Part shown: piece by piece, positions 23,776-35,142 of the stretch
Position numbering within the stretch: position 1 is the stretch's first letter
Layout: each line of letters starts with the position of its first letter
Virus record (IMG/VR): IMGVR_UViG_2526164668_000014
Length of the DNA stretch: 35,142 nucleotides
Direction: 5' to 3' (one strand)
Source: a virus
Taxonomy: Duplodnaviria > Heunggongvirae > Uroviricota > Caudoviricetes
Notes under the pieces: model-generated
Databases searched by the model: none
Told to the model about the DNA's origin: nothing
The model's input: only the letters and a program-made list of their open reading frames with translations
Position numbers and translations under genes: made by a program

Positions 23776-24519
23776 ATGACCACACCAAATCCACTGGCAA
23801 AGACGAAAGGTGCGGGGACGACGTTCTGGATGTATACCGGCAACGGCGATGCGTTTGCGAACCCTTTGTCGGACACTGACTGGCTGCGTCTTGCGATGGT
23901 GAAGGATCTGCAACCTGGCGAAATGACCGCTGATGCAGAAGATGACACTTATCTCGATGATGAAGATGCAGACTGGAAAACGACAACCCAGGGGCAGAAA
24001 TCCGTTGGTGATACTTCGGCGACGCTGGCCTGGCGTCCGGGTGACAGCGGGCAGAAAAAACTGGTTCAGTTGTTCGACTCCGGTGAAGTCTGCGCGTTTC
24101 GTATCAAATATCCCAACGGCACTGTTGATGTTTTCCGTGGCTGGCTGAGCTCACTGGGTAAAACCATTGCCTCAAAAGACGTGATGACCCGCACTGTGAA
24201 AATCAGCGGTGTGGGGCGTCCGTATCTGGCAGAGGAAGGCACTGAAACCGTGAGCGTTACCGGGCTGACAGTATCACCGGCGTCTGCCAGTGTAAAAGTG
24301 GGAGCAACCACCACGCTGACCTTTACAGTAAAACCTGACGGAGCCAGTGACAAAGCGATCAGTGTGCATTCGTCAGATCCACAGACTGCCACGGTTACCC
24401 TGAACGGACTTGTGGCCACGGTAAAAGGCGTGAAGCAGGGCAGTGTCAGCATTGTGGGCATGACCGCTGACGGGAATTTTGTGGCTGTGACTGCGGTGAC
24501 TGTCAGCGCAGCAGGTTAA
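23776..24519 (+). CDS. V: Major tail protein V with C-terminal Ig-like (Big_2) domain
   Basis: AAGGAGG SD; 247 aa; C-terminal TVSPASASVKVGATTTLTFTVKPDGASD... Ig-like repeat. Confidence 0.85.
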   Translation: MTTPNPLAKTKGAGTTFWMYTGNGDAFANPLSDTDWLRLAMVKDLQPGEMTADAEDDTYLDDEDADWKTTTQGQKSVGDTSATLAWRPGDSGQKKLVQLFDSGEVCAFRIKYPNGTVDVFRGWLSSLGKTIASKDVMTRTVKISGVGRPYLAEEGTETVSVTGLTVSPASASVKVGATTTLTFTVKPDGASDKAISVHSSDPQTATVTLNGLVATVKGVKQGSVSIVGMTADGNFVAVTAVTVSAAG

Positions 24520-24539
24520 CAGGACGATACTCATCATTT

Positions 24540-24563
24540 GCCCCGGTTATGCGGGGCTTTTTT
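24540..24563 (+). terminator. Rho-independent terminator between V and G
   Basis: GCCCCG-GTTATG-CGGGGC hairpin followed by TTTTTT. Confidence 0.6.
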
Positions 24564-24576
24564 GCAGGTGGAGAAC

Positions 24577-24966
24577 ATGATGTTTCTGAAACAGGACACG
24601 TTTAATTATGAAAAACAGTCCGTGGTGCTCAGTGAGCTGTCCGGGCTGCAGAGAATTGAATATCTGACGTTTGTTCAGCAGCGAACGGCAAAGTTTGATG
24701 CCGGGGAGGGAGAACTGCCGGAGGCTGAACGACAGATTGCTTTTCTGCGGATGGGGATGGATATCAATGCCTGGCTGGTTTCCCGCTCACTGTGGAATGC
24801 GGATCAGTCTAAGGATGTAGAGACGCTTTGCGCATCCGTTATTACAACATGGTCGTATGATGCCCTGGGTGCGGGGGCGGAGATGGTTCTGTCGCTGAGC
24901 GGTATGGGGGCCATTGATAATGCCGTGGATGATGAGCATGAGGCGCTGACGCCGGAAAAGTCCTGA
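24577..24966 (+). CDS. G: Tail assembly chaperone G
   Basis: MMFLKQDTFNYEKQSVVLSELSGLQRIEYL resembles remembered lambda G (MFLKTESFEHNGVTVTLSELSALQRIEHL). Confidence 0.8.
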   Translation: MMFLKQDTFNYEKQSVVLSELSGLQRIEYLTFVQQRTAKFDAGEGELPEAERQIAFLRMGMDINAWLVSRSLWNADQSKDVETLCASVITTWSYDALGAGAEMVLSLSGMGAIDNAVDDEHEALTPEKS

Positions 24967-25304
24967 CGCGGGAAATGCAGTTTGTCATGCGGCTTGCCCG
25001 GGAGTTCCGGCGGGCAGACTGGCGGCGGATGCTGTCGGAAATGTCTGCCACTGAGCTTGGTGAGTGGGGCGATTATTTCCGGATGCAGAGCTTCAGTGAT
25101 GTGTGGATGGATGCACAGTTTGCCTCGCTGAAGGCATTGATCGTGAGAATGGTGTCCGGCAGCAGTGATGCTGCGGTGGCTGATTTCAGCCTTTTACCGG
25201 AAGAGAACGGGATACCGGAGCGAACGGACGAAGAACTGATGCATCTTGGGGAAGGTATTTCCGGAGGTGTGCGTTATGGACCAGATAGCCAACCTGGTCA
25301 TTGA
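24942..25304 (+). CDS. T: T segment of the G-T chaperone, expected to be expressed by a -1 frameshift from G
   Basis: The -1 frame is open from 24942 and overlaps the last 8 codons of G; candidate slip site GGAAAAG at 24954-24960. Confidence 0.6.
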   Translation, partial: GADAGKVLTREMQFVMRLAREFRRADWRRMLSEMSATELGEWGDYFRMQSFSDVWMDAQFASLKALIVRMVSGSSDAAVADFSLLPEENGIPERTDEELMHLGEGISGGVRYGPDSQPGH

Positions 25305-28300
25305 TTTGGGGATTGATGCGGCAGAGTTTAAAAATGAAATTCCCCGTATCAAAAACCTTCTGAATGGTGCAGCCAGCGATGCAGAACGGTCTTCTGCCCG
25401 TATGCAGCGTTTTATGGAGCGTCAGACTCAGGCCGCCCGGCAGACAACGCAGGCAGCTTCTTCGGCTGCAACAGCCGCATCCGTCCATGCGCAGACGGTG
25501 GAGAAGAACGCACAGGCTCATGAACGCATGGCCCGCGAGGTGGAGAAAACCCGCCAGCGCATGGAGGCACTGAGCCAGAAAATGCGCGAGGAACAGGCGC
25601 AGGCCATGGCTCTGGCGGAGGCTCAGGATAAAGCGGCTGCTGCGTTTTATCGTCAGATTGACAGTGTGAAACAGGCCAGTGCGGGGCTGCAGGAATTACA
25701 GCGTATTCAGCAGCAGATCCGACAGGCCAGAAACAGTGGCGGGATTGGTCAGCAGGATTATCTGGCGCTGATTTCTGAGGTTACTGCGAAAACCCGTGTT
25801 CTTACACAGGCTGAGGAAGAGGCTACCCGACAGAAAGTGGCGTTTATCCGTCAGCTTAAAGAGCAGGCAACCCGCCTGAATCTTTCATCTTCTGAGTTGC
25901 TTCGTGCTAAGGCAGCCCAGTTGGGGGTAAGCAGTGCTGCAGAAGTGTATATCCGCAAAATGGAGCAGGCAGGAAAAGCCACGCATTCGCTGGGTCTGAA
26001 AAGTGCAGCAGCCCGCCAGGAGATAGGCGTTCTGATAGGTGAACTGGCCCGCGGCAATTTAGGGGCGCTGAGGGGATCCGGGATAACGCTGGCTAACCGT
26101 GCCGGATGGATAGACACACTGATGTCACCGAAAGGCATGATGCTTGGCGGGGTTATTGGCGGTATTGCCGCGGCCGTCTATGGTCTGGGTAAAGCCTGGT
26201 ATGACGGTCAGAAGGAGGGGGAAGAATTTAACCGCCAGTTGTCGCTGACGGGGCATTATGCCGGAGTCACTGCCGGGCAGCTGTGGACGCTCAGTCGTGC
26301 TATTTCCGGGAATGGTATCACGCAACATGCTGCAGCCGGTGCGCTGGCTCAGGTGGTGGGGAGTGGTGCATTTCGTGGAAACGATATCGGTATGGTGGCG
26401 AGAGCTGCCGCACAGATGGAGCGATCGGTTGGCCAGTCGGTCAGCGATACCATAAATCAGTTTAAGCGGCTGAAGGATGATCCTGTAAATGCCGCGAAGG
26501 CTCTGGACAATGAGCTGCATTTTCTTACTGCCACTCAGCTTGAGCAGATACGTGTCCTTGGGGATCAGGGACGGTCCAGTGATGCTGCACGGATAGCCAT
26601 GTCTGCACTGGCAGAGGAAACCGGTCGGCGTACTGCGGATATTGATAATAACCTCAATGCGCTTGGCAGTACGCTGAAGTATCTGTCTGATTTGTGGAGT
26701 CGTTTCTGGGATGCGGCCATGAATATTGGTCGTGAAGACTCGCTGGATGAACAGATTGCCGCTTTACAGGAGAAAGTGTCGCGGGCGAAAAGACTCCCCT
26801 GGACGGCATCATCTTCTCAGGTTGAATACGATCAGCAGCGTCTTAACGATCTTCAGGAGAAAAAACGCCAGAAGGATTTGCAGGATGCAAAAGAGCAGGC
26901 AGAGCGGAATTATCAGGAGCAACAGAAACGCCGTAATGCTGAAAATGCTGCACTGAACCGGATGAATGAAACGGAAGCAGCACGACATCAGCGTGAAATT
27001 GCGCGTATTAATTCCATGCAGTACGCCGATCAGACTGTCAGGGATGCAGCGATACAAAGTGAAAATGAACGTTACGAGAAAGCCCTAGCATCCGGTAAGA
27101 AAAAAACACGCGAAACCCGTAATGATGAGGCCACCCGGTTATTGCTGCAGTACAGTCAGCAACAGGCACAGGTGGAAGGACAGATTGCTGCTGCAAGACA
27201 GTCAGCAGGCATTGCCACTGAAAAGATGACAGAAGCGCATAAACAGCTTCTGGCTCTGCAGCAGCGCATCAGCGATCTGGACGGGAAAAAACTGACGGCA
27301 GATGAAAAGAGTGTGCTGGCCCGTAAAGATGAACTGATTCAGGCACTGACGCTGCTGGATGTAAAACAGCAGGAGCTTCAGAAACAGACGGCACTCAACG
27401 ATCTGAAGAAAAAAACAATTCAGCTGACCAGTCAACTGGCTGAAGAAGAGCGCGCTCAGCGTCAGCAACATGACCTGGATATCGCCACGGTGGGTATGGG
27501 TGATCAGCAGCGGCAGCGATATCAGGTACAACTGAGTCTTCGCCAGAAATACCAGCAACAGCTGGAGCAGTTGAGGCGGGATAGTGAGCAGAAAGGGACA
27601 TATAACACGGATGACTACAGAAAGGCCGAGCAGGCGCTGACGGAGAGCCTGAACCGACAACTGAATGAGAATCGCCGTTACTGGCAACAGCTTGAAGTTG
27701 TGCAGGGTAACTGGAAAAACGGAGTCCTGCGTGCATTTCAGGATTTTACCGTGGATGCAGACAATACGGCAGGAACAGCAGAACAGGTGTTCTCGTCAGC
27801 CTTCAGCAACATGGGAAATGGCCTGGCAACTTTTGTCACTACCGGCAAACTCAACTTCAAATCCTTCACCTCTTCGGTGCTGTCAGATATGGCGAAAATT
27901 CTGGCGCAGGCAACCATGATGAAATCGATAAAAGGGATTGGCAGTGTACTGGGATTTGATCTCAGCAGCCTTTCCCTGAATGCCAATGGGGGGATTTATC
28001 AGTCTGCTGATTTGAGTCGTTACAGTGGCACGGTGGTTAACCGTCCGACGTTTTTTGCTTTTGCAAAAGGCGCGGGTGTGATGGGGGAAGCTGGACCTGA
28101 AGCCATTCTGCCACTGCGTCGTGGTGCTGACGGTAAGCTGGGGGTTGTGGCGGATATTGGTGGTTCAGGTATGGCGATGTTTGCCCCGCAGTACAACATC
28201 GAGATCAATAACGATGGCACGAACGGGCAGATAGGTCCGGCTGCCCTGAAGGTGGTTTATGACCTTGGGAAAAAAGCAGCAGCGGACTTTATGCAACAGC

Positions 28301-28341
28301 AGGCCCGTGATGGTGGTCGGTTAAGTGGAGCATATCGGTAA
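25276..28341 (+). CDS. H: Tail tape measure protein H
   Basis: About 1021 aa, long coiled-coil Q/A/E/R-rich, positioned between G-T and M. Confidence 0.85.
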   Translation: MDQIANLVIDLGIDAAEFKNEIPRIKNLLNGAASDAERSSARMQRFMERQTQAARQTTQAASSAATAASVHAQTVEKNAQAHERMAREVEKTRQRMEALSQKMREEQAQAMALAEAQDKAAAAFYRQIDSVKQASAGLQELQRIQQQIRQARNSGGIGQQDYLALISEVTAKTRVLTQAEEEATRQKVAFIRQLKEQATRLNLSSSELLRAKAAQLGVSSAAEVYIRKMEQAGKATHSLGLKSAAARQEIGVLIGELARGNLGALRGSGITLANRAGWIDTLMSPKGMMLGGVIGGIAAAVYGLGKAWYDGQKEGEEFNRQLSLTGHYAGVTAGQLWTLSRAISGNGITQHAAAGALAQVVGSGAFRGNDIGMVARAAAQMERSVGQSVSDTINQFKRLKDDPVNAAKALDNELHFLTATQLEQIRVLGDQGRSSDAARIAMSALAEETGRRTADIDNNLNALGSTLKYLSDLWSRFWDAAMNIGREDSLDEQIAALQEKVSRAKRLPWTASSSQVEYDQQRLNDLQEKKRQKDLQDAKEQAERNYQEQQKRRNAENAALNRMNETEAARHQREIARINSMQYADQTVRDAAIQSENERYEKALASGKKKTRETRNDEATRLLLQYSQQQAQVEGQIAAARQSAGIATEKMTEAHKQLLALQQRISDLDGKKLTADEKSVLARKDELIQALTLLDVKQQELQKQTALNDLKKKTIQLTSQLAEEERAQRQQHDLDIATVGMGDQQRQRYQVQLSLRQKYQQQLEQLRRDSEQKGTYNTDDYRKAEQALTESLNRQLNENRRYWQQLEVVQGNWKNGVLRAFQDFTVDADNTAGTAEQVFSSAFSNMGNGLATFVTTGKLNFKSFTSSVLSDMAKILAQATMMKSIKGIGSVLGFDLSSLSLNANGGIYQSADLSRYSGTVVNRPTFFAFAKGAGVMGEAGPEAILPLRRGADGKLGVVADIGGSGMAMFAPQYNIEINNDGTNGQIGPAALKVVYDLGKKAAADFMQQQARDGGRLSGAYR

Positions 28342-28670
28342 TGGAGACGTTTCACTGGAAAGTGCGCCCGGATATGAATGTGGTATCAGAGCCGAAAGTG
28401 GTGACAGTGAAGCTGGGCGATGGTTATGAACAGCGTCGTGCGGCGGGACTGAATAACCAGTTGTCGACTTACAGCGTGACGATACGTGTTCGTAAATGTG
28501 AACACCCATCTTTAAAAGCCTTTCTGGAACGGCACGGTGGCGTCCGCGCATTTCAGTGGACGCCACCTTATGACTGGAAGCCGATCAGGGTGGTTTGTCG
28601 TAAATGGTCGGCAAGCGTGGGGGCGTTGTGGGTAACCATAACGGCAGATTTTGAACAGGTCGTGGCATAG
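28341..28670 (+). CDS. M: Minor tail protein M
   Basis: METFHWKVRPDMNVV...GDGYEQRRAAGLN...WTPPYDW...FEQVVA resembles remembered lambda M. Confidence 0.85.
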   Translation: METFHWKVRPDMNVVSEPKVVTVKLGDGYEQRRAAGLNNQLSTYSVTIRVRKCEHPSLKAFLERHGGVRAFQWTPPYDWKPIRVVCRKWSASVGALWVTITADFEQVVA

Positions 28671-28679
28671 GAGTCTCTG

Positions 28680-29378
28680 ATGCTGGATATTCCACAGGAA
28701 ACACATCATGAGACGACACGCCTCACTCAGTCAGCCCAGGTGGTGCTCTGGGAAATCGATCTGACAGTGGTCGGTGGAGAACGTTATTTTTTCTGTAATG
28801 AGCAGAACGAAAAAGGTGAGCCGGTCACCTGGCAGGGGCGACAGTATCAGGCCTATCCCATTCAGGGGACGGGATTTGAACTGAACGGCAAGGGCAGTGC
28901 TGCCCGTCCGACACTGACGGTTGCTAACCTGCACGGCATGGTCACCGGGATGGCGAAAGACCTGCAGAGTCTGGTCGGAGGAACGGTGGTCCGGCGTAAG
29001 GTTTACGCCCGTTTTCTGGATGCGGTGAACTTCGTCAACGGAAACAGTGACGCCGATCCGGAGCAGGAGGTGATCAGCCGCTGGCGCATCGAGCAGTGCA
29101 GCGAACTGAGCGCGGTGAGTGCCTCTTTTGTACTGTCCACGCCGACGGAAACGGACGGTGCCGTTTTTCCGGGACGTATCATGCTGGCCAACACCTGCAC
29201 CTGGACCTATCGCGGTGATGAGTGCGGTTATCACGGTCCGGCGGTCGCGGATGAATATGATCAGCCGACGTCCGATATCACGAAGGATAAATGCAGCAAA
29301 TGCCTGAGCGGCTGTAAGTTCCGCAATAACGTCGGCAACTTTGGCGGCTTCCTTTCCATTAACAAACTTTCGCAGTGA
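28680..29378 (+). CDS. L: Minor tail protein L
   Basis: 232 aa; Cys cluster CTWTYRGDECGY...CSKCLSGC; gene order. Confidence 0.85.
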   Translation: MLDIPQETHHETTRLTQSAQVVLWEIDLTVVGGERYFFCNEQNEKGEPVTWQGRQYQAYPIQGTGFELNGKGSAARPTLTVANLHGMVTGMAKDLQSLVGGTVVRRKVYARFLDAVNFVNGNSDADPEQEVISRWRIEQCSELSAVSASFVLSTPTETDGAVFPGRIMLANTCTWTYRGDECGYHGPAVADEYDQPTSDITKDKCSKCLSGCKFRNNVGNFGGFLSINKLSQ

Positions 29379-29383
29379 ATCCC

Positions 29384-30127
29384 ATGACAGAGACAGAATC
29401 AGCGATTCTGGCGCACGCCCGGCGATGTGCGCCAGCGGAGTCGTGCGGCTTCGTGGTAAGCACGCCGGAGGGGGAAAGATATTTCCCCTGCGTGAATATC
29501 TCCGGTGAGCCGGAGGCGTATTTCCGTATGTCGCCGGAAGACTGGCTGCAGGCAGAAATGCAGGGTGAGATTGTGGCGCTGGTCCACAGCCACCCCGGTG
29601 GTCTGCCCTGGCTGAGTGAGGCCGACCGGCGGCTGCAGGTGCAGAGTGATTTGCCGTGGTGGCTGGTCTGCCGGGGGACGATTCATAAATTCCGCTGTGT
29701 GCCGCATCTCACCGGGCGGCGCTTTGAGCACGGGGTGACGGACTGTTACACGCTGTTCCGGGACGCTTATCATCTGGCGGGGATTGAGATGCCGGACTTT
29801 CATCGTGAGGATGACTGGTGGCGTAACGGTCAGAATCTCTATCTGGATAATCTGGAGGCCACAGGGCTGTATCAGGTGCCGTTGTCATCAGCACAACCGG
29901 GCGATGTGCTGCTGTGCTGTTTTGGTTCATCGGTGCCGAATCATGCCGCCATTTACTGTGGCGACGGCGAGCTGCTGCACCATATTCCTGAACAACTGAG
30001 TAAACGAGAGAGGTACACCGACAAATGGCAGCGACGCACACACTCCCTCTGGCGTCACCGGGCATGGCACGCATCTGCCTTTACGGGGATTTGCAACGAT
30101 TTGGTCGCCGTATCGACCTTCGTGTGA
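29384..30127 (+). CDS. K: Tail tip assembly protein K (JAB/MPN plus NlpC/P60 domains)
   Basis: JAB motif EIVALVHSHPGG; C-terminal Cys/His peptidase-like region; GTG at 29375 is an alternative start. Confidence 0.85.
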   Translation: MTETESAILAHARRCAPAESCGFVVSTPEGERYFPCVNISGEPEAYFRMSPEDWLQAEMQGEIVALVHSHPGGLPWLSEADRRLQVQSDLPWWLVCRGTIHKFRCVPHLTGRRFEHGVTDCYTLFRDAYHLAGIEMPDFHREDDWWRNGQNLYLDNLEATGLYQVPLSSAQPGDVLLCCFGSSVPNHAAIYCGDGELLHHIPEQLSKRERYTDKWQRRTHSLWRHRAWHASAFTGICNDLVAVSTFV

Positions 30128-30672
30128 AAACGGGGGCTGAAGCCATCCGGGCACTGGCCACACAGCTCCCGGTGTTTCGTCAGAAACTGAATGAGGGCTG
30201 GTATCAGGTGCGCATTGCCGGGCGTGATGCAGGCGAAACTGAATTGTCTGCCCGTCTTAATGAGCCGCTGGCAAATGGTGCCGTGATCCACATCGTGCCG
30301 CGTCTGGCGGGAGCTAAAAGTGGCGGTGTGTTTCAGGTGGTGCTTGGGGCGGCGCTGATTGCGGTGGCATGGTGGAACCCTGTGGGCTGGCTGGGTGCCG
30401 CGGCTGTATCGGGCATGTATGCGGCAGGGGCCAGTATGATCCTGGGCGGAGTGGCGCAGATGCTGGCACCGAAAGCCAGGACGCCCACGGCAGCAAGTAC
30501 AGATAACGGCAAACAGAACACCTATTTCTCCTCACTGGATAACATGGTTGCCCAGGGCAATGTTCTGCCCGTTCTGTACGGTGAAATGCGCGTGGGGTCG
30601 CGGGTGGTCTCTCAGGAGATCAGCACGGCAGACGAAGGGGATGGTGGTCAGGTTGTGGTGATTGGTCGCTGA
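30025..30672 (+). CDS. I: Tail tip assembly protein I
   Basis: 215 aa; central hydrophobic Gly/Ala-rich segment; C-terminus NVLPVLYGEMRVGSRVVSQEIS; the 5' end overlaps K by about 100 nt. Confidence 0.8.
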   Translation: MAATHTLPLASPGMARICLYGDLQRFGRRIDLRVKTGAEAIRALATQLPVFRQKLNEGWYQVRIAGRDAGETELSARLNEPLANGAVIHIVPRLAGAKSGGVFQVVLGAALIAVAWWNPVGWLGAAAVSGMYAAGASMILGGVAQMLAPKARTPTAASTDNGKQNTYFSSLDNMVAQGNVLPVLYGEMRVGSRVVSQEISTADEGDGGQVVVIGR

Positions 30673-30691
30673 TGAAAAACGTTTATGTGAA

Positions 30692-30712
30692 ACCGCCTCA
30701 GGGCGGTTTTGT
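30692..30712 (+). terminator. Rho-independent terminator-like hairpin after I
   Basis: CCGCC-TCAG-GGCGG hairpin followed by TTTTGTCGTTT. Confidence 0.5.
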
Positions 30713-30731
30713 CGTTTCTGGAGCGTGAGGA

Positions 30732-33700
30732 ATGGGTAAAGGCAGCAGTAAGGGGCATACCCCGCGCGAAGCGAAGGACAACCTGAAATCATCCCAGATG
30801 CTGAGCGTGATAGACGCCATCAGCGAAGGGCCGGTTGAAGGTCCGGTGGACGGATTAAAAAGTGTGCTGCTGAACAGTACGCCAGTGCTGGACAGTGAGG
30901 GGAATACCAATATCTCCGGTGTCACGGTGGTTTTCCGGGCAGGTGAGCAGGAGCAGACACCGCCGGAGGGATTTGAATCCTCCGGCTCCGAGACGGTGCT
31001 GGGTACGGAAGTGAAGTACGACACGCCGATTACCCGGACCATCACGTCTGCAAACATCGACCGTCTGCGCTTTACCTTCGGTGTGCAGGCACTGGTGGAA
31101 ACCACCTCAAAGGGGGACCGGAATCCGTCGGAAGTCCGCCTGCTGGTTCAGATCCAGCGTAATGGTGGCTGGGTGACGGAAAAAGACATCACCATTAAGG
31201 GCAAAACCACCTCGCAGTATCTGGCCTCGGTGGTGGTGGGTAACCTGCCGCCGCGCCCGTTCAATATACGGATGCGCAGGATGACGCCGGACAGCACCAC
31301 AGACCAGCTGCAGAACAAAACGCTCTGGTCGTCATACACCGAAATCATCGATGTGAAACAGTGCTACCCGAACACGGCACTGGTCGGCGTGCAGGTGGAT
31401 TCGGAGCAGTTCGGCAGCCAGCAGGTGAGCCGTAATTATCATCTGCGCGGGCGCATTCTGCAGGTGCCGTCGAACTATAACCCGCAGACGCGGCAATACA
31501 GCGGTATCTGGGACGGAACGTTTAAGCCAGCATACAGCAACAACATGGCCTGGTGTCTGTGGGATATGCTGACCCATCCGCGTTATGGCATGGGGAAACG
31601 TCTTGGTGCAGCGGATGTGGATAAATGGGCGCTGTATGTCATCGGCCAGTACTGCGACCAGTCGGTGCCGGACGGCTCTGGCGGCACGGAGCCGCGCATC
31701 ACCTGTAATGCGTACCTGACCACACAGCGCAAGGCGTGGGATGTGCTCAGTGATTTCTGCTCTGCGATGCGCTGTATGCCGGTATGGAACGGGCAGACGC
31801 TGACGTTCGTGCAGGACCGACCGTCGGATAAGGTGTGGACCTATAACCGCAGTAATGTGGTGATGCCGGATGATGGTGCGCCGTTCCGCTACAGCTTCAG
31901 CGCCCTGAAGGACCGCCATAATGCCGTTGAGGTGAACTGGATTGACCCGAATAACGGCTGGGAGACGGCGACAGAGCTTGTGGAGGACACGCAGGCCATT
32001 GCCCGTTACGGTCGTAACGTCACGAAGATGGATGCCTTTGGCTGTACCAGCCGGGGGCAGGCACACCGAGCCGGGCTGTGGCTGATTAAAACGGAACTGC
32101 TGGAAACGCAGACCGTGGACTTCAGCGTGGGCGCCGAAGGGCTTCGCCATGTACCGGGCGATGTCATTGAAATCTGCGATGATGACTATGCCGGTATCCG
32201 CACCGGCGGGCGCGTGCTGGCGGTAAACAGCCAGACCCGGACGCTGACGCTCGACCGTGAAATCACGCTGCCATCTTCCGGCACCACGCTGATAAGCCTG
32301 GTTGACGGGCAGGGGAGTCCGGTCAGCGTGGAGGTTCAGTCCGTCACCGACGGCGTGAAGGTGAAAGTGAGCCGTGTTCCTGACGGCGTTGCTGAATACA
32401 GCGTATGGGGGCTGAAGCTGCCGACGTTGCGCCAGCGCCTGTTCCGCTGCGTGAGTATCCGTGAGAACGACGACGGCACGTATGCCATCACCGCCGTGCA
32501 GCATGTACCGGAAAAAGAGGCCATCGTGGATAACGGGGCGCACTTTGACGGCGACCAGAGCGGCACGGTAAATGGTGTCACGCCGCCAGCGGTGCAGCAC
32601 CTGACCGCAGAAGTCACCGCAGACAGCGGGGAATATCAGGTGCTGGCGCGCTGGGACACACCGAAGGTGGTGAAGGGCGTGAGCTTTATGCTTCGCCTGA
32701 CCGTGGCAGCGGACGACGGCAGTGAGCGGCTGGTCAGCACGGCCCGGACGACGGAAACCACATACCGCTTCACGCAACTGGCGCCGGGGAACTACAGGCT
32801 GACAGTCCGGGCGGCAAATGCCTGGGGACAGCAGGGCGATCCGGCGTCGGTATCGTTCCGGATTGCCGCACCGGCAGCACCGTCGCGGATTGAGCTGACG
32901 CCGGGCTATTTTCAGATAACCGCAACGCCGCATCTTGCCGTTTATGATCCGACGGTACAGTTTGAGTTCTGGTTCTCGGAAACGCGGATTACCGATATCA
33001 GGCAGGTTGAAACCACAGCCCGCTACCTTGGCACGGGGCTGTACTGGATAGCCGCCAGTATCAATATCAAACCGGGCCATGATTATTACTTTTATATCCG
33101 CAGTGTGAACACCGTTGGCAAATCGGCATTCGTGGAGGCCGTCGGTCGGGCGAGCGATGATGCGGAAGGTTACCTGGATTTTTTCAAAGGCAAGATAACC
33201 GAATCCCATCTCGGCAAGGAGCTGCTGGAAAAAGTCGAGCTGACGGAGGATAACGCCAGCAGACTGGAGGAGTTTTCGAAAGAGTGGAAGGACGCCAACG
33301 ATAAGTGGAATGCAATGTGGGCTGTCAAAATTGAGCAGACCAAAGACGGCAAACATTATGTCGCGGGTATTGGCCTCAGCATGGAGGACACGGAGGAAGG
33401 CAAACTGAGCCAGTTTCTGGTTGCCGCTAACCGTATCGCGTTTATTGACCCGGCAAACGGGAATGAAACGCCGATGTTTGTGGCGCAGGGCAACCAGATA
33501 TTCATGAACGACGTGTTCCTGAAGCGCCTGACGGCTCCCACCATTACCAGCGGCGGTAATCCTCCGGCATTTTCCCTGACACCGGACGGAAAGCTGACCG
33601 CTAAAAATGCAGATATCAGTGGCAGTGTGAATGCGAACGCCGGGACGCTCAACAATGTCACAATTAATGAGAACTGTCAGATTAAGGGGAAACTGTCAGC

Positions 33701-34127
33701 CAACCAGATTGAAGGCGATATAGTCAAAACAGTGGGTAAGGCTTTTCCGCGGGACTCCCGGGCACCGGAGCGGTGGCCATCAGGGACCATTACCGTCAGG
33801 GTTTATGACGATCAGCCGTTTGACCGGCAGATTGTTATTCCGGCGGTGGCATTCAGTGGCGCTAAGCATGAGAGAGAGCATACTGATATTTACTCCTCAT
33901 GCCGTCTGATAGTGCGGAAAAACGGTGCTGAAATTTATAACCGTACCGCGCTGGATAATACGCTGATTTACAGTGGCGTTATTGATATGCCTGCCGGTCA
34001 CGGTCACATGACGCTGGAGTTTTCGGTATCAGCATGGCTAGTGAATAACTGGTATCCCACAGCAAGTATCAGCGATTTGCTGGTTGTGGTGATGAAGAAA
34101 GCCACCGCAGGCATCAGTATCAGCTGA
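30732..34127 (+). CDS. J: Central tail fibre / host-specificity protein J
   Basis: 1131 aa; N-terminus [20 protein letters not shown] as in lambda J; fibronectin-III-like repeats; gene order. Confidence 0.9.
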
Positions 34128-34147
34128 ATTTTATAACCCATATACGG

Positions 34148-34171
34148 GCGCCAGAAATGGCGCCTTTTTTA
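34148..34171 (+). terminator. Rho-independent terminator after J
   Basis: GGCGCC-AGAAAT-GGCGCC hairpin followed by TTTTTT. Confidence 0.65.
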
Positions 34172-34194
34172 TTGCAGAAAAGCGAGAGGTAATT

Positions 34195-34797
34195 ATGCGT
34201 AAACTTTATGCCGCCATTTTGTCCGCAGCCATTTGTCTGGCCGTATCCGGTGCGCCTGCATGGGCGTCTGAACATCAGTCCACGCTGAGCGCGGGGTATC
34301 TTCATGCCTCGACGAACGTTCCCGGCAGCGATGAACTGAACGGGATTAACGTGAAATACCGTTATGAGTTTACGGACACACTGGGGATGGTGACGTCATT
34401 CAGCTATGCAGGAGACAAGAATCGCCAGCTGACCCATTACAGCGATACCCGCTGGCATGAAGATTCCGTGCGTAACCGCTGGTTCAGCGTGATGGCGGGG
34501 CCGTCTGTGCGCGTGAATGAATGGTTCAGCGCGTATGCGATGGCGGGTATGGCTTACAGCCGTGTGTCGACTTTCTCCGGGGATTATCTCCGCGTAACTG
34601 ACAACAAGGGGAAAACGCACGACGTGCTGACCGGAAGTGATGACGGTCGCCACAGCAACACGTCTCTGGCGGTGGGGAGCGTGGCGTGCACGTTTAACCC
34701 GACCGAATCCGTGGCCATTGATATTGCTTATGAAGGCTCCGGCAGTGGCGACTGGCGCACTGACGGTTTCATCGTGGGTGTCGGTTATAAGTTCTGA
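34195..34797 (+). CDS. lom: Lom (Ail/Lom-family outer-membrane beta-barrel protein)
   Basis: 200 aa; signal peptide MRKLYAAILSAAICLAVSGAPAWA; C-terminal GFIVGVGYKF beta-barrel signature. Confidence 0.9.
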   Translation: MRKLYAAILSAAICLAVSGAPAWASEHQSTLSAGYLHASTNVPGSDELNGINVKYRYEFTDTLGMVTSFSYAGDKNRQLTHYSDTRWHEDSVRNRWFSVMAGPSVRVNEWFSAYAMAGMAYSRVSTFSGDYLRVTDNKGKTHDVLTGSDDGRHSNTSLAVGSVACTFNPTESVAIDIAYEGSGSGDWRTDGFIVGVGYKF

Positions 34798-34823
34798 TTA
34801 GCCAGGTAACACAGTGTTATGAC

Positions 34824-34851
34824 AGCCCGCCGGTTCAGGCGGGCTTTTTTG
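34824..34851 (+). terminator. Rho-independent terminator after lom
   Basis: AGCCCGCC-GGTTCA-GGCGGGCT hairpin followed by TTTTTT. Confidence 0.65.
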
Positions 34852-34861
34852 TGGGGTGAAT

Positions 34862-35142
34862 ATGGCAGTAAAGATTTCAGGTGTACTGAAAGACGGCACA
34901 GGAAAACCGGTACAGAACTGCACAATCCAGCTGAAAGCAAAACGTAACAGCACCACGGTGGTGGTGAACACGCTGGCCTCAGAAAATCCGGATGAAGCCG
35001 GGCGTTACAGCATGGACGTTGAGTACGGGCAGTACAGCGTTATTCTGTTGGTGGAAGGATTCCCGCCGTCACATGCCGGGACCATCACCGTGTATGAAGA
35101 TTCTCAACCGGGGACGCTGAATGATTTTCTCGGTGCCATGTC
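34862..35142 (+). CDS. stf: Side tail fibre protein Stf, N-terminal part (runs off the window)
   Basis: MAVKISGVLKDGTGKPVQNCTIQLKAKRNS... matches the remembered N-terminus of lambda Stf; open to the window end. Confidence 0.8.
   Translation, partial: MAVKISGVLKDGTGKPVQNCTIQLKAKRNSTTVVVNTLASENPDEAGRYSMDVEYGQYSVILLVEGFPPSHAGTITVYEDSQPGTLNDFLGAM

Follow-up and report, generated by a model that had tools for sequence, protein, structure and literature searches.

The window, a stretch of 35,142 nt from an E. coli prophage, carries an intact J gene within the order L-K-I-J-lom-stf, which is also that of lambda and of an annotated relative. The L-like, K-like and I-like open reading frames start at 28680, 29375 and 30025, respectively, and are followed by J, lom and stf (Table 1). 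The lom product was 84% identical to the Lom of VT1-Sakai and 43% identical to that of lambda, while the N-terminus of stf (MAVKISGVLKDGTGKPVQNCTIQLKA...) was close to lambda orf-401/Stf. Among complete E. coli genomes, none matched the entire second half of the window with an identity above 97.5%.

Table 1. Features of J and its downstream neighbourhood, in window coordinates.
Feature	Position	Strand	Description
J (tip attachment / central tail fibre protein)	30732..34127	+	Intact ORF, 1131 aa plus stop
Lambda-like part of J, aa 1-973	30732..33651	+	Hub, FNIII/Ig domains, helical shaft and most of the beta-prism fibre
Short segment of a third type, ~aa 974-1007	33652..33752	+	Last fibre layers above the receptor-binding domain; A8/phi330-like protein; downstream boundary approximate
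Receptor-binding domain (RBD), aa 1001-1131	33732..34124	+	Ig-like, PF12421; 1A2 / VT1-Sakai allele type; predicted OmpC binder
Variable loop HEREHTDIY, aa 1046-1054	33867..33893	+	Counterpart of the phi330/A8 hairpin ENFNSNNQQS, ~6 residues shorter; multiple alignment
Loop VNNWYP, aa 1104-1109	34041..34058	+	Counterpart of the phi330/A8 hairpin ANNWTP; alignment
Terminator-like hairpin and T-run	34146..34170	+	GGGCGCCAGAAATGGCGCCT then TTTTT; consensus scan, pattern match only; just 3' of the J stop
lom (Ail/Lom outer-membrane protein), EHEC-phage type	34195..34797	+	ORF; genomic context
stf (side tail fibre), 5' end	34852..35142	+	Cut by the window end; genomic context

J was assigned to the lambda type by its full-length colinear homology to lambda gpJ. 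In a phmmer comparison, residues 1-1130 of the query aligned with residues 1-1131 of the lambda gpJ chain in PDB 8iyk (8iyk_J), with a score of 2333 bits. The Pfam domains of J also followed the lambda order, all of them well over cut-off, and included FNIII-A_GpJ (PF24801), Phage-tail_3 (PF13550), Ig_J (PF24421), Ig_J_second (PF24489), Phage_Tail_Tip (PF09327) and Ig_GpJ_C (PF12421).

The initial annotation had described most of J as lambda-like and the last 150 or so residues as unlike the LamB-binding C-terminus of lambda, and both statements were borne out by a global alignment with lambda J (NC_001416 15505..18903). Across aa 1-965, 941 of the 965 residues were identical (97.5%, 24 substitutions), compared with 78 of 167 (46.7%) across aa 966-1131 and 40.9% within the RBD (aa 1001-1131), giving a divergent stretch of about 160 residues. 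Nucleotide identity to lambda J in 150-nt bins was 91-100% as far as position 33581 and then 77%, 60%, 57% and 62%. A nucleotide likelihood scan placed the best single breakpoint at 33652, codon 974, with mismatches to lambda J at 4.3% of positions upstream and 40.8% downstream (Fisher p ~1e-99). The divergence from lambda is genuine and abrupt, and it far exceeds what chance would give. Its onset lies about 50 nt downstream of the start first proposed for it (33600, which is codon 957 and in frame), and the first peptide quoted in that proposal starts at aa 967 (33630). Within the lambda-like part, the differences from lambda were mostly synonymous, with a nucleotide identity of ~95.7% and an amino acid identity of 97.5%.

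Immediately after the breakpoint, the DNA of a short segment (Table 1) was unlike that of lambda and also unlike that of 2G7b, VT1-Sakai and Stx2a_2409, and near identity to 2G7b and Sakai was observed from ~33753 on. At the protein level this segment matched A8 (PDB 9wca) and phi330 rather than 1A2 or Sakai. The 65 residues before the FPR motif were 95% identical to A8 gpJ and phi330 J, and only the segment of ~35 residues above the RBD is A8-like.

The fold of the C-terminal domain can be taken as settled, since it aligned without large gaps to two solved RBD structures (A8 gpJ, 9wca, E=1e-108 to 3e-108; lambda gpJ, 8xcj, E=1e-85) and aa 1001-1131 matched the whole of the Pfam RBD profile (Ig_GpJ_C, positions 1-135 of 135, E=2.6e-37). 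By this homology, the tail of J is no foreign or unrelated domain; it belongs to the same Ig-like RBD family, as a divergent allele. Its allele type was determined from identities over the last 127 residues of J, which begin with the FPR motif (aa 1005). These were 98.4% for VT1-Sakai, 98.4% for 2G7b and 99.2% for Stx2a_2409, compared with 56.8% for A8, 41.4% for lambda and 39.1% for 434. Accordingly, aa 1005-1131 belong to the 1A2/VT1-Sakai type, being nearly identical to VT1-Sakai J. They are not of the lambda/LamB type, whose variable segments are replaced, or of the A8/phi330 type, whose hairpin is 6 residues longer. More broadly, the RBD was 98-99% identical to the J of VT1-Sakai (Sp15), long-tailed Stx1a and Stx2a phages, PPompW, P-EibA and 2G7b. 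Only two of the 127 residues differed from VT1-Sakai, namely R1048K and S1129T (R and S in the window, K and T in Sakai); R1048 was also found in Stx2a_2409 and 2G7b, and S1129 in Stx2a_2409. DNA related to the divergent tail of J was observed in 4001 of 5426 complete E. coli genomes. The anatomy of J, its breakpoint, the identity of its allele and the prevalence of that allele are thus direct observations.

Two loops within the RBD have counterparts in OmpC-using relatives. The hairpin ENFNSNNQQS of phi330 points into the OmpC barrel in an AlphaFold3 model by its authors (PMC12502783), and the shorter loop at aa 1046-1054 may play a similar role in J. The loop VNNWYP may likewise act as the second phi330/A8 hairpin does; its NNW(Y/T)P pattern is common to J and A8/phi330, and an N-N/Q-W motif also occurs in the OmpC binder 434 (GNQW), while lambda has neither (SADIPP). 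In lambda, the RBD binds LamB via four bottom loops (PMC11101478). Use of OmpC by these relatives is documented by PDB 9wcb, in which A8 gpJ713 is seen together with OmpC chains, and by the Stx2a siphophage phi330, which lost plating on the Keio delta-ompC strain and regained it on complementation (PMC12502783). We also considered phi330 (PV189401) as a carrier of the window's RBD allele and rejected it, as its translation is of the A8 type (129 of 131 RBD residues identical to A8). The prophage-derived PhiR phages from ECOR strains that carry the allele have ECOR13 or E. coli C as recorded hosts and none has K-12, which is circumstantial support for OmpC use. The SNIPE/ECOR PhiR paper is silent on the receptors of the PhiR phages; a 2026 receptor-prediction preprint, which covers Drexlerviridae GpJ only, gives nothing on natural phages with this allele, and neither does the phage 21 paper (PMC11336670).

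Functional data on the allele come from gpJ 1A2, an engineered lambda tail tip (Brödel et al., Nature 2024, PMC11338833). In the gpJ chimeras of that study, 1A2 included, the fusion point was lambda aa 964, and the exchanged region thus matches the part of J that is divergent here. On MG1655 delta-lamB delta-ompC, 1A2 particles delivered only when a compatible OmpC was supplied from a plasmid; in these assays, which measured transduction by lambda chimeras with a P2-type side fibre and not infection by a natural phage, 20 of 23 OmpC alleles, including that of EDL933, gave at least 76% GFP+ cells at the highest MOI, and the remaining 3, including that of K-12, gave 2% or less (PMC11338833). [quoted passage not shown]

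The 1A2 gpJ DNA was available to us from a machine-read supplementary PDF with dropped bases (PMC11338833), and a plain tblastn search with it returned HSPs broken over three frames. These were stitched by frameshift-tolerant alignment, leaving ~10 of 127 RBD residues unreadable. At every cleanly read position the 1A2 C-terminus equalled VT1-Sakai J, with the exception of one F-to-L change, possibly a misreading. The raw identity of 94% understates the true value because of the unreadable residues and of artefacts such as 'ITFCVY'. No exact DNA words of the window were found in the 1A2 supplement (PMC11338833), and 1A2 was compared at the protein level because its deposited C-terminus uses different codons.

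The proposal that this phage would use a receptor other than LamB is upheld to the extent that its RBD, with 2 of 127 residues differing from VT1-Sakai, is of the allele of the OmpC-dependent, LamB-independent 1A2. Homology strongly indicates that J would use OmpC rather than LamB, and we expect it to behave like 1A2. The OmpC dependence and LamB independence of 1A2, the use of OmpC by A8 and phi330, and the docking and triggering of lambda J are taken from the literature.

We consider it very probable that J is a mosaic of a lambda body, an A8-like segment and an RBD of the 1A2/VT1-Sakai type, and that its porin is a non-K-12 OmpC and not LamB. Homologous recombination among lambdoid prophages would have produced this mosaic, in which a lambda-type body (aa 1 to ~973) is followed by a short A8-like distal fibre segment and then by the RBD, the allele being that of VT1-Sakai (Sp15), the long-tailed Stx phages, 2G7b and gpJ-1A2. 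Three copies of J would form the central fibre, as in lambda, and their three RBDs would dock by the bottom loops onto a trimeric outer-membrane porin. This porin would be the OmpC of most natural E. coli variants, the EDL933 type included, rather than the K-12 variant or LamB.

J may instead be a passenger in a decaying prophage, with a specificity that is no longer exercised and an allele that records past recombination only. The prophage lies at a Qin-type locus, close relatives have a partial ISEsa1 transposase and a frameshifted stf, lom in the window has three 1-bp insertions, and the J of VT1-Sakai is itself split by mutation. However, J here is uninterrupted over 1131 codons and differs from lambda mostly by synonymous changes, and L, K and I upstream are likewise uninterrupted, leaving decay a minor but real chance in our judgement. 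Decay concerns the use of J and not what its domain binds, and is compatible with a mosaic J directed at OmpC.

It is quite improbable that R1048 and S1129, together with the A8-like segment, direct J to a third receptor, such as OmpF or another outer-membrane protein, or give it an OmpC range unlike that of 1A2. Single J substitutions do alter porin use in lambda and phage 21, and one to four were enough for gain of OmpC or OmpF use in these phages (PMC11336670); the combination of an A8-like linker with a 1A2-like RBD is also unlike the 1A2 construct. However, R-to-K is a conservative change, as is S-to-T, and natural members of the allele group have each of the window residues, the linker lies above the RBD and away from the bottom loops, which in lambda make the porin contacts (PMC11101478), and the parental types A8 and 1A2 both use OmpC. 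That the RBD still binds LamB, its divergence reflecting drift or immune-type diversification with no change of receptor, is very unlikely indeed: the fold family PF12421 is shared with lambda's RBD, phage 21 natively uses LamB through its J and lambdoid RBDs can accept more than one porin (PMC11336670), but identity to the lambda RBD is just ~41% with all variable segments replaced, and LamB is neither needed nor involved for 1A2, since the allele is active without LamB and fails when, in delta-lamB delta-ompC cells, the OmpC supplied does not match (PMC11338833). Returning to the mosaic J that we favour, there is a slim chance that its combination with R1048 and S1129 differs from both parents in OmpC-allele range or in triggering; in that event the altered range might include K-12 OmpC or a second porin, and the mosaic would be an intermediate, found in nature, on the way from one host range to another.

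Ever since the lambda h434 hybrids, the C-terminus of J has been known to be exchanged as a module. J here is ordinary host-range module swapping with an RBD module that is very common and already characterised; the pattern and the allele are both published, and conceptually nothing is new. The sequence predicts that particles of this prophage would ignore LamB and need a non-K-12 OmpC, which would account for the failure of such phages to plate on standard K-12 indicator strains. This bears on the spread of lambdoid prophages, Stx-converting ones included, among STEC lineages. A large share of the E. coli genomes sequenced so far carry the RBD allele, which has already been exploited in engineered delivery vectors.

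Compared with known systems, J is colinear over its full length with lambda J (P03749; PDB 8iyk, and 8xcj with LamB), with the same Pfam series and gene order, and the two probably have in common a trimeric fibre with an Ig-like RBD. The lambda RBD is ~41% identical, and the variable segments, where the bottom loops would lie, are replaced in J here. Phage 434 J (lambda h434, OM418627), the classical lambdoid tail tip for OmpC, is built on the same principle, its lambda-like body ending in an exchanged C-terminal RBD that leads to OmpC, but its RBD is only 39% identical to that of J, has other loop lengths and represents a separate allele lineage. A8 gpJ (PDB 9wca; OmpC complex 9wcb) and phi330 J, whose receptor is OmpC, share with J the domain family, the NNW-x-P loop and the C-terminal strand; however, their RBD is only 57% identical, their hairpin is longer (ENFNSNNQQS, compared with EREHTD here), and they use K-12 OmpC while the 1A2 type does not.

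Other known systems have the same RBD allele. Among phages, J of lambda_2G7b (LR595866) gave the best match over the full length (100% coverage, 95.9% nucleotide identity); its RBD is 98.4% identical, and it differs from J here by a few substitutions, N1106G and S1129T among them, and by a linker of the 1A2 type. In its published description, identity to lambda exceeds 97% across the N-terminal 982 aa and is 40-60% across the C-terminal ~150 (Andrews & Fields, bioRxiv 10.1101/2020.06.25.171868). The gpJ-1A2 and the J of VT1-Sakai/Sp15 (AP000400) likewise combine this RBD allele with a lambda-type body at the same junction place, although the VT1-Sakai J is split by mutation and J here is intact. 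Above the RBD, J reads QIKGK...DIVK where these two read RVLGK...DLVK, with ~7 differences from 1A2/Sakai among 40 residues.

We compared J, the lambda-type tail-tip protein of the window, with lambda J (NC_001416 15505..18903) and observed 97.5% identity over residues 1-965 (24 substitutions), 68.6% over residues 966-1000 and 40.9% over residues 1001-1131. Nucleotide identity in 150-nt bins was 91-100% through position 33581 and then 77%, 60%, 57% and 62%, while a single-breakpoint likelihood scan placed the switch at 33652 (codon 974), with 4.3% mismatches to lambda before this point and 40.8% after it (Fisher p ~1e-99). The initial annotation had described J as lambda-like over most of its length with a C-terminal domain that may differ, starting at 33600 (codon 957, in frame) and quoting a peptide that begins at codon 967 (33630). 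Both parts of this description were borne out, and the drop in identity together with the breakpoint statistic confirmed that the C-terminal divergence is not a chance fluctuation.

The divergent tail is not a foreign domain. Residues 1001-1131 matched the whole Pfam profile PF12421 ('Tip attachment protein J, C-terminal receptor binding domain', hereafter RBD; E=2.6e-37), and the remainder of J carried the lambda series of domains. The last 232 residues aligned end to end with gpJ713 of A8, a natural C-terminal variant (PDB 9wca/9wcb, E=3e-108), and with lambda gpJ713 (8xcj/8xck, E=1e-85). Lambda J combines hub domains, two FNIII domains, a helical shaft and a beta-prism fibre with an Ig-like RBD that inserts four bottom loops into the LamB trimer (PMC11101478). 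In a multiple alignment, conserved RBD blocks (FPR, SGT-TV-V-DD--FDRQ, NG--IY, DMPAG-G, KK---GIS) alternated with fully replaced segments, the pattern expected of a conserved scaffold with exchanged loops.

The last 600 nt of J were also aligned as DNA with lambda and with the J-bearing phages 2G7b, VT1-Sakai (Sp15) and Stx2a_2409. Up to ~33638 the sequence was lambda-like, unlike the other three, whereas from ~33753 to the stop codon it was almost identical to those three. The ~110 nt between them, just above the RBD (~33639-33752), matched none of the four, and the encoded peptide equals the type found in A8 and in phi330, a natural Stx2a siphophage. This stretch indicates that the final 500 nt of J hold a second recombination junction. 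With its three segments, J is a mosaic of the kind that recombination among lambdoid prophages typically produces.

This tip allele is among the commonest in E. coli: a megablast search with the 501-nt 3' end of J hit 4001 of the 5426 complete genomes, at a median of 2 copies each, and several STEC genomes, such as O103:H2 12009 and an O45:H2 strain, carried it at 100% identity. A tblastn search of 50,697 phage records found the last 165 residues at 95-99% identity in 52, including long-tailed Stx2a- and Stx1a-converting phages, VT1-Sakai, PPompW prophages, 2G7b and ECOR-derived PhiR phages. P-EibA was 99.2% identical to the window's J over the J portion present in its record. From the FPR motif to the C-terminus of J (127 residues), identity to the window was 99.2% for Stx2a_2409, 98.4% for both VT1-Sakai and 2G7b, 56.8% for A8, 41.4% for lambda and 39.1% for 434.

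Brödel et al. (Nature 2024, PMC11338833) exchanged the lambda gpJ C-terminus from residue 964 onward for the natural variants A8 and 1A2, amplified from E. coli strains, and so retargeted particles from LamB to OmpC. We translated both constructs across frameshifts from the Supplementary Information, a machine-read text with dropped bases. The 1A2 C-terminus equalled VT1-Sakai J at all cleanly read positions but one (including RVLGK, DLVK, HEKEH and GITIS), the exception being an F-to-L mismatch that may be a reading error. Within the RBD the window differed from VT1-Sakai only at R1048 (K in Sakai and 1A2) and S1129 (T), and against 1A2 we counted these two conservative differences plus about seven in the linker just above the RBD, subject to the reading errors in the 1A2 text.

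In MG1655 delta-lamB delta-ompC complemented with 23 OmpC alleles, 1A2 particles at the highest MOI turned 76-99% of cells GFP-positive with 20 of the alleles and <=2% with three (G1, G2, G40), and no delivery was achieved by wild-type lambda gpJ in this delta-lamB background (PMC11338833). The G1 numbers are identical to those of the K-12 OmpC panel (Extended Data Fig. 2). The 1A2 delivery values of the permissive G17 equal the EDL933-OmpC series (Extended Data Fig. 8), and we therefore take G17 to be the EDL933 allele. These results are direct evidence that the 1A2-type RBD uses OmpC in an allele-selective manner and does not need LamB. By its near identity to 1A2, the window's J very probably binds in an OmpC-dependent, LamB-independent manner. 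A different receptor or allele range is improbable, though lambda and phage 21 can change their porin use through single J substitutions (PMC11336670). Continued use of LamB is the least credible reading, 1A2 particles having delivered to cells that lack it.

The host records of the PhiR phages fit OmpC use of the 1A2 type circumstantially, in that the allele is unable to use K-12 OmpC: those with this J tip (PV340545, PV340560, PV340565, PV340566, PV340570, PV340571) were recorded on ECOR13 or E. coli C, none on K-12. PhiR11_1, recorded on K-12 MG1655, matched the window's J only through nt 2957, so its tip is another allele.

J and neighbouring features of the window
Feature	Position	Strand	Remarks
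L-, K- and I-like ORFs	upstream of J		ORF list
J	30732..34127	+	intact ORF, 1131 codons
Terminator-like GC hairpin and T-run	34146-34170		directly after J; pattern match only
lom	34195..34797		downstream of J
Terminator-like GC hairpin and T-run	34824-34850		directly after lom; pattern match only
stf start	34852 onward		downstream of lom

Flanked by these terminator-like hairpins, lom may form a transcription unit of its own, which would be in keeping with a moron expressed in lysogeny. Within lom (34660-34699), three 1-bp insertions were observed within ~20 nt relative to VT1-Sakai lom, CTGGC(G)GTGGGGAGC(G)TGGCGTGCA(C)GTTT, with the frame restored and AWGAGVQF changed to AVGSVACTF in an otherwise conserved Lom stretch; they may be an artefact of sequencing or assembly, or may represent a compensated frameshift.

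A lambdoid prophage present in several E. coli genomes, OkiPb01675 and O157:H7 493/89 among them, matched the window's first 24 kb (from base 421) at 99.9-100%. In OkiPb01675 this prophage abuts rspB, with the integrase next to it, and carries dicB, ydfA, relBE, hokD, cspB/F/I, Q (annotated ydfT), lysis genes, a lambda-like tail module and a partial ISEsa1 transposase, with a prohead protease/major capsid fusion gene in place of lambda's head genes. It appears to be a full-length relative of the Qin/Kim cryptic prophage of K-12. The last 11 kb (24001-35142, tape measure to stf) had no full-length match above 97.5% in the 5,426 complete genomes, so this exact mosaic is not represented among them; the window joins a common early and head module to a tail module not represented in that set.

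Exchange of the J C-terminus is a textbook host-range determinant, as in lambda h434 (cited in PMC11101478), and the receptor of this J allele has already been determined and exploited. The C-terminal divergence is a correct finding that was already known. The sister allele, A8, also supports OmpC use. In PDB 9wcb, A8 gpJ713 is accompanied by three chains of an OmpC variant, and the phi330 RBD is identical to that of A8 at 129 of 131 residues. Phi330 fails to plate on Keio delta-ompC, a defect that complementation reverses; in an AlphaFold3 model its hairpin E953-S962 (ENFNSNNQQS) lies inside the OmpC barrel, with A1015-P1020 (ANNWTP) at the barrel rim (PMC12502783). The window's homologue of the hairpin, HEREHTDIY (residues 1046-1054), is about six residues shorter, which may underlie the different OmpC-allele range. 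At the second site the window has VNNWYP (residues 1104-1109) and 434, another OmpC user, has GNQW, whereas lambda has SADIPP.
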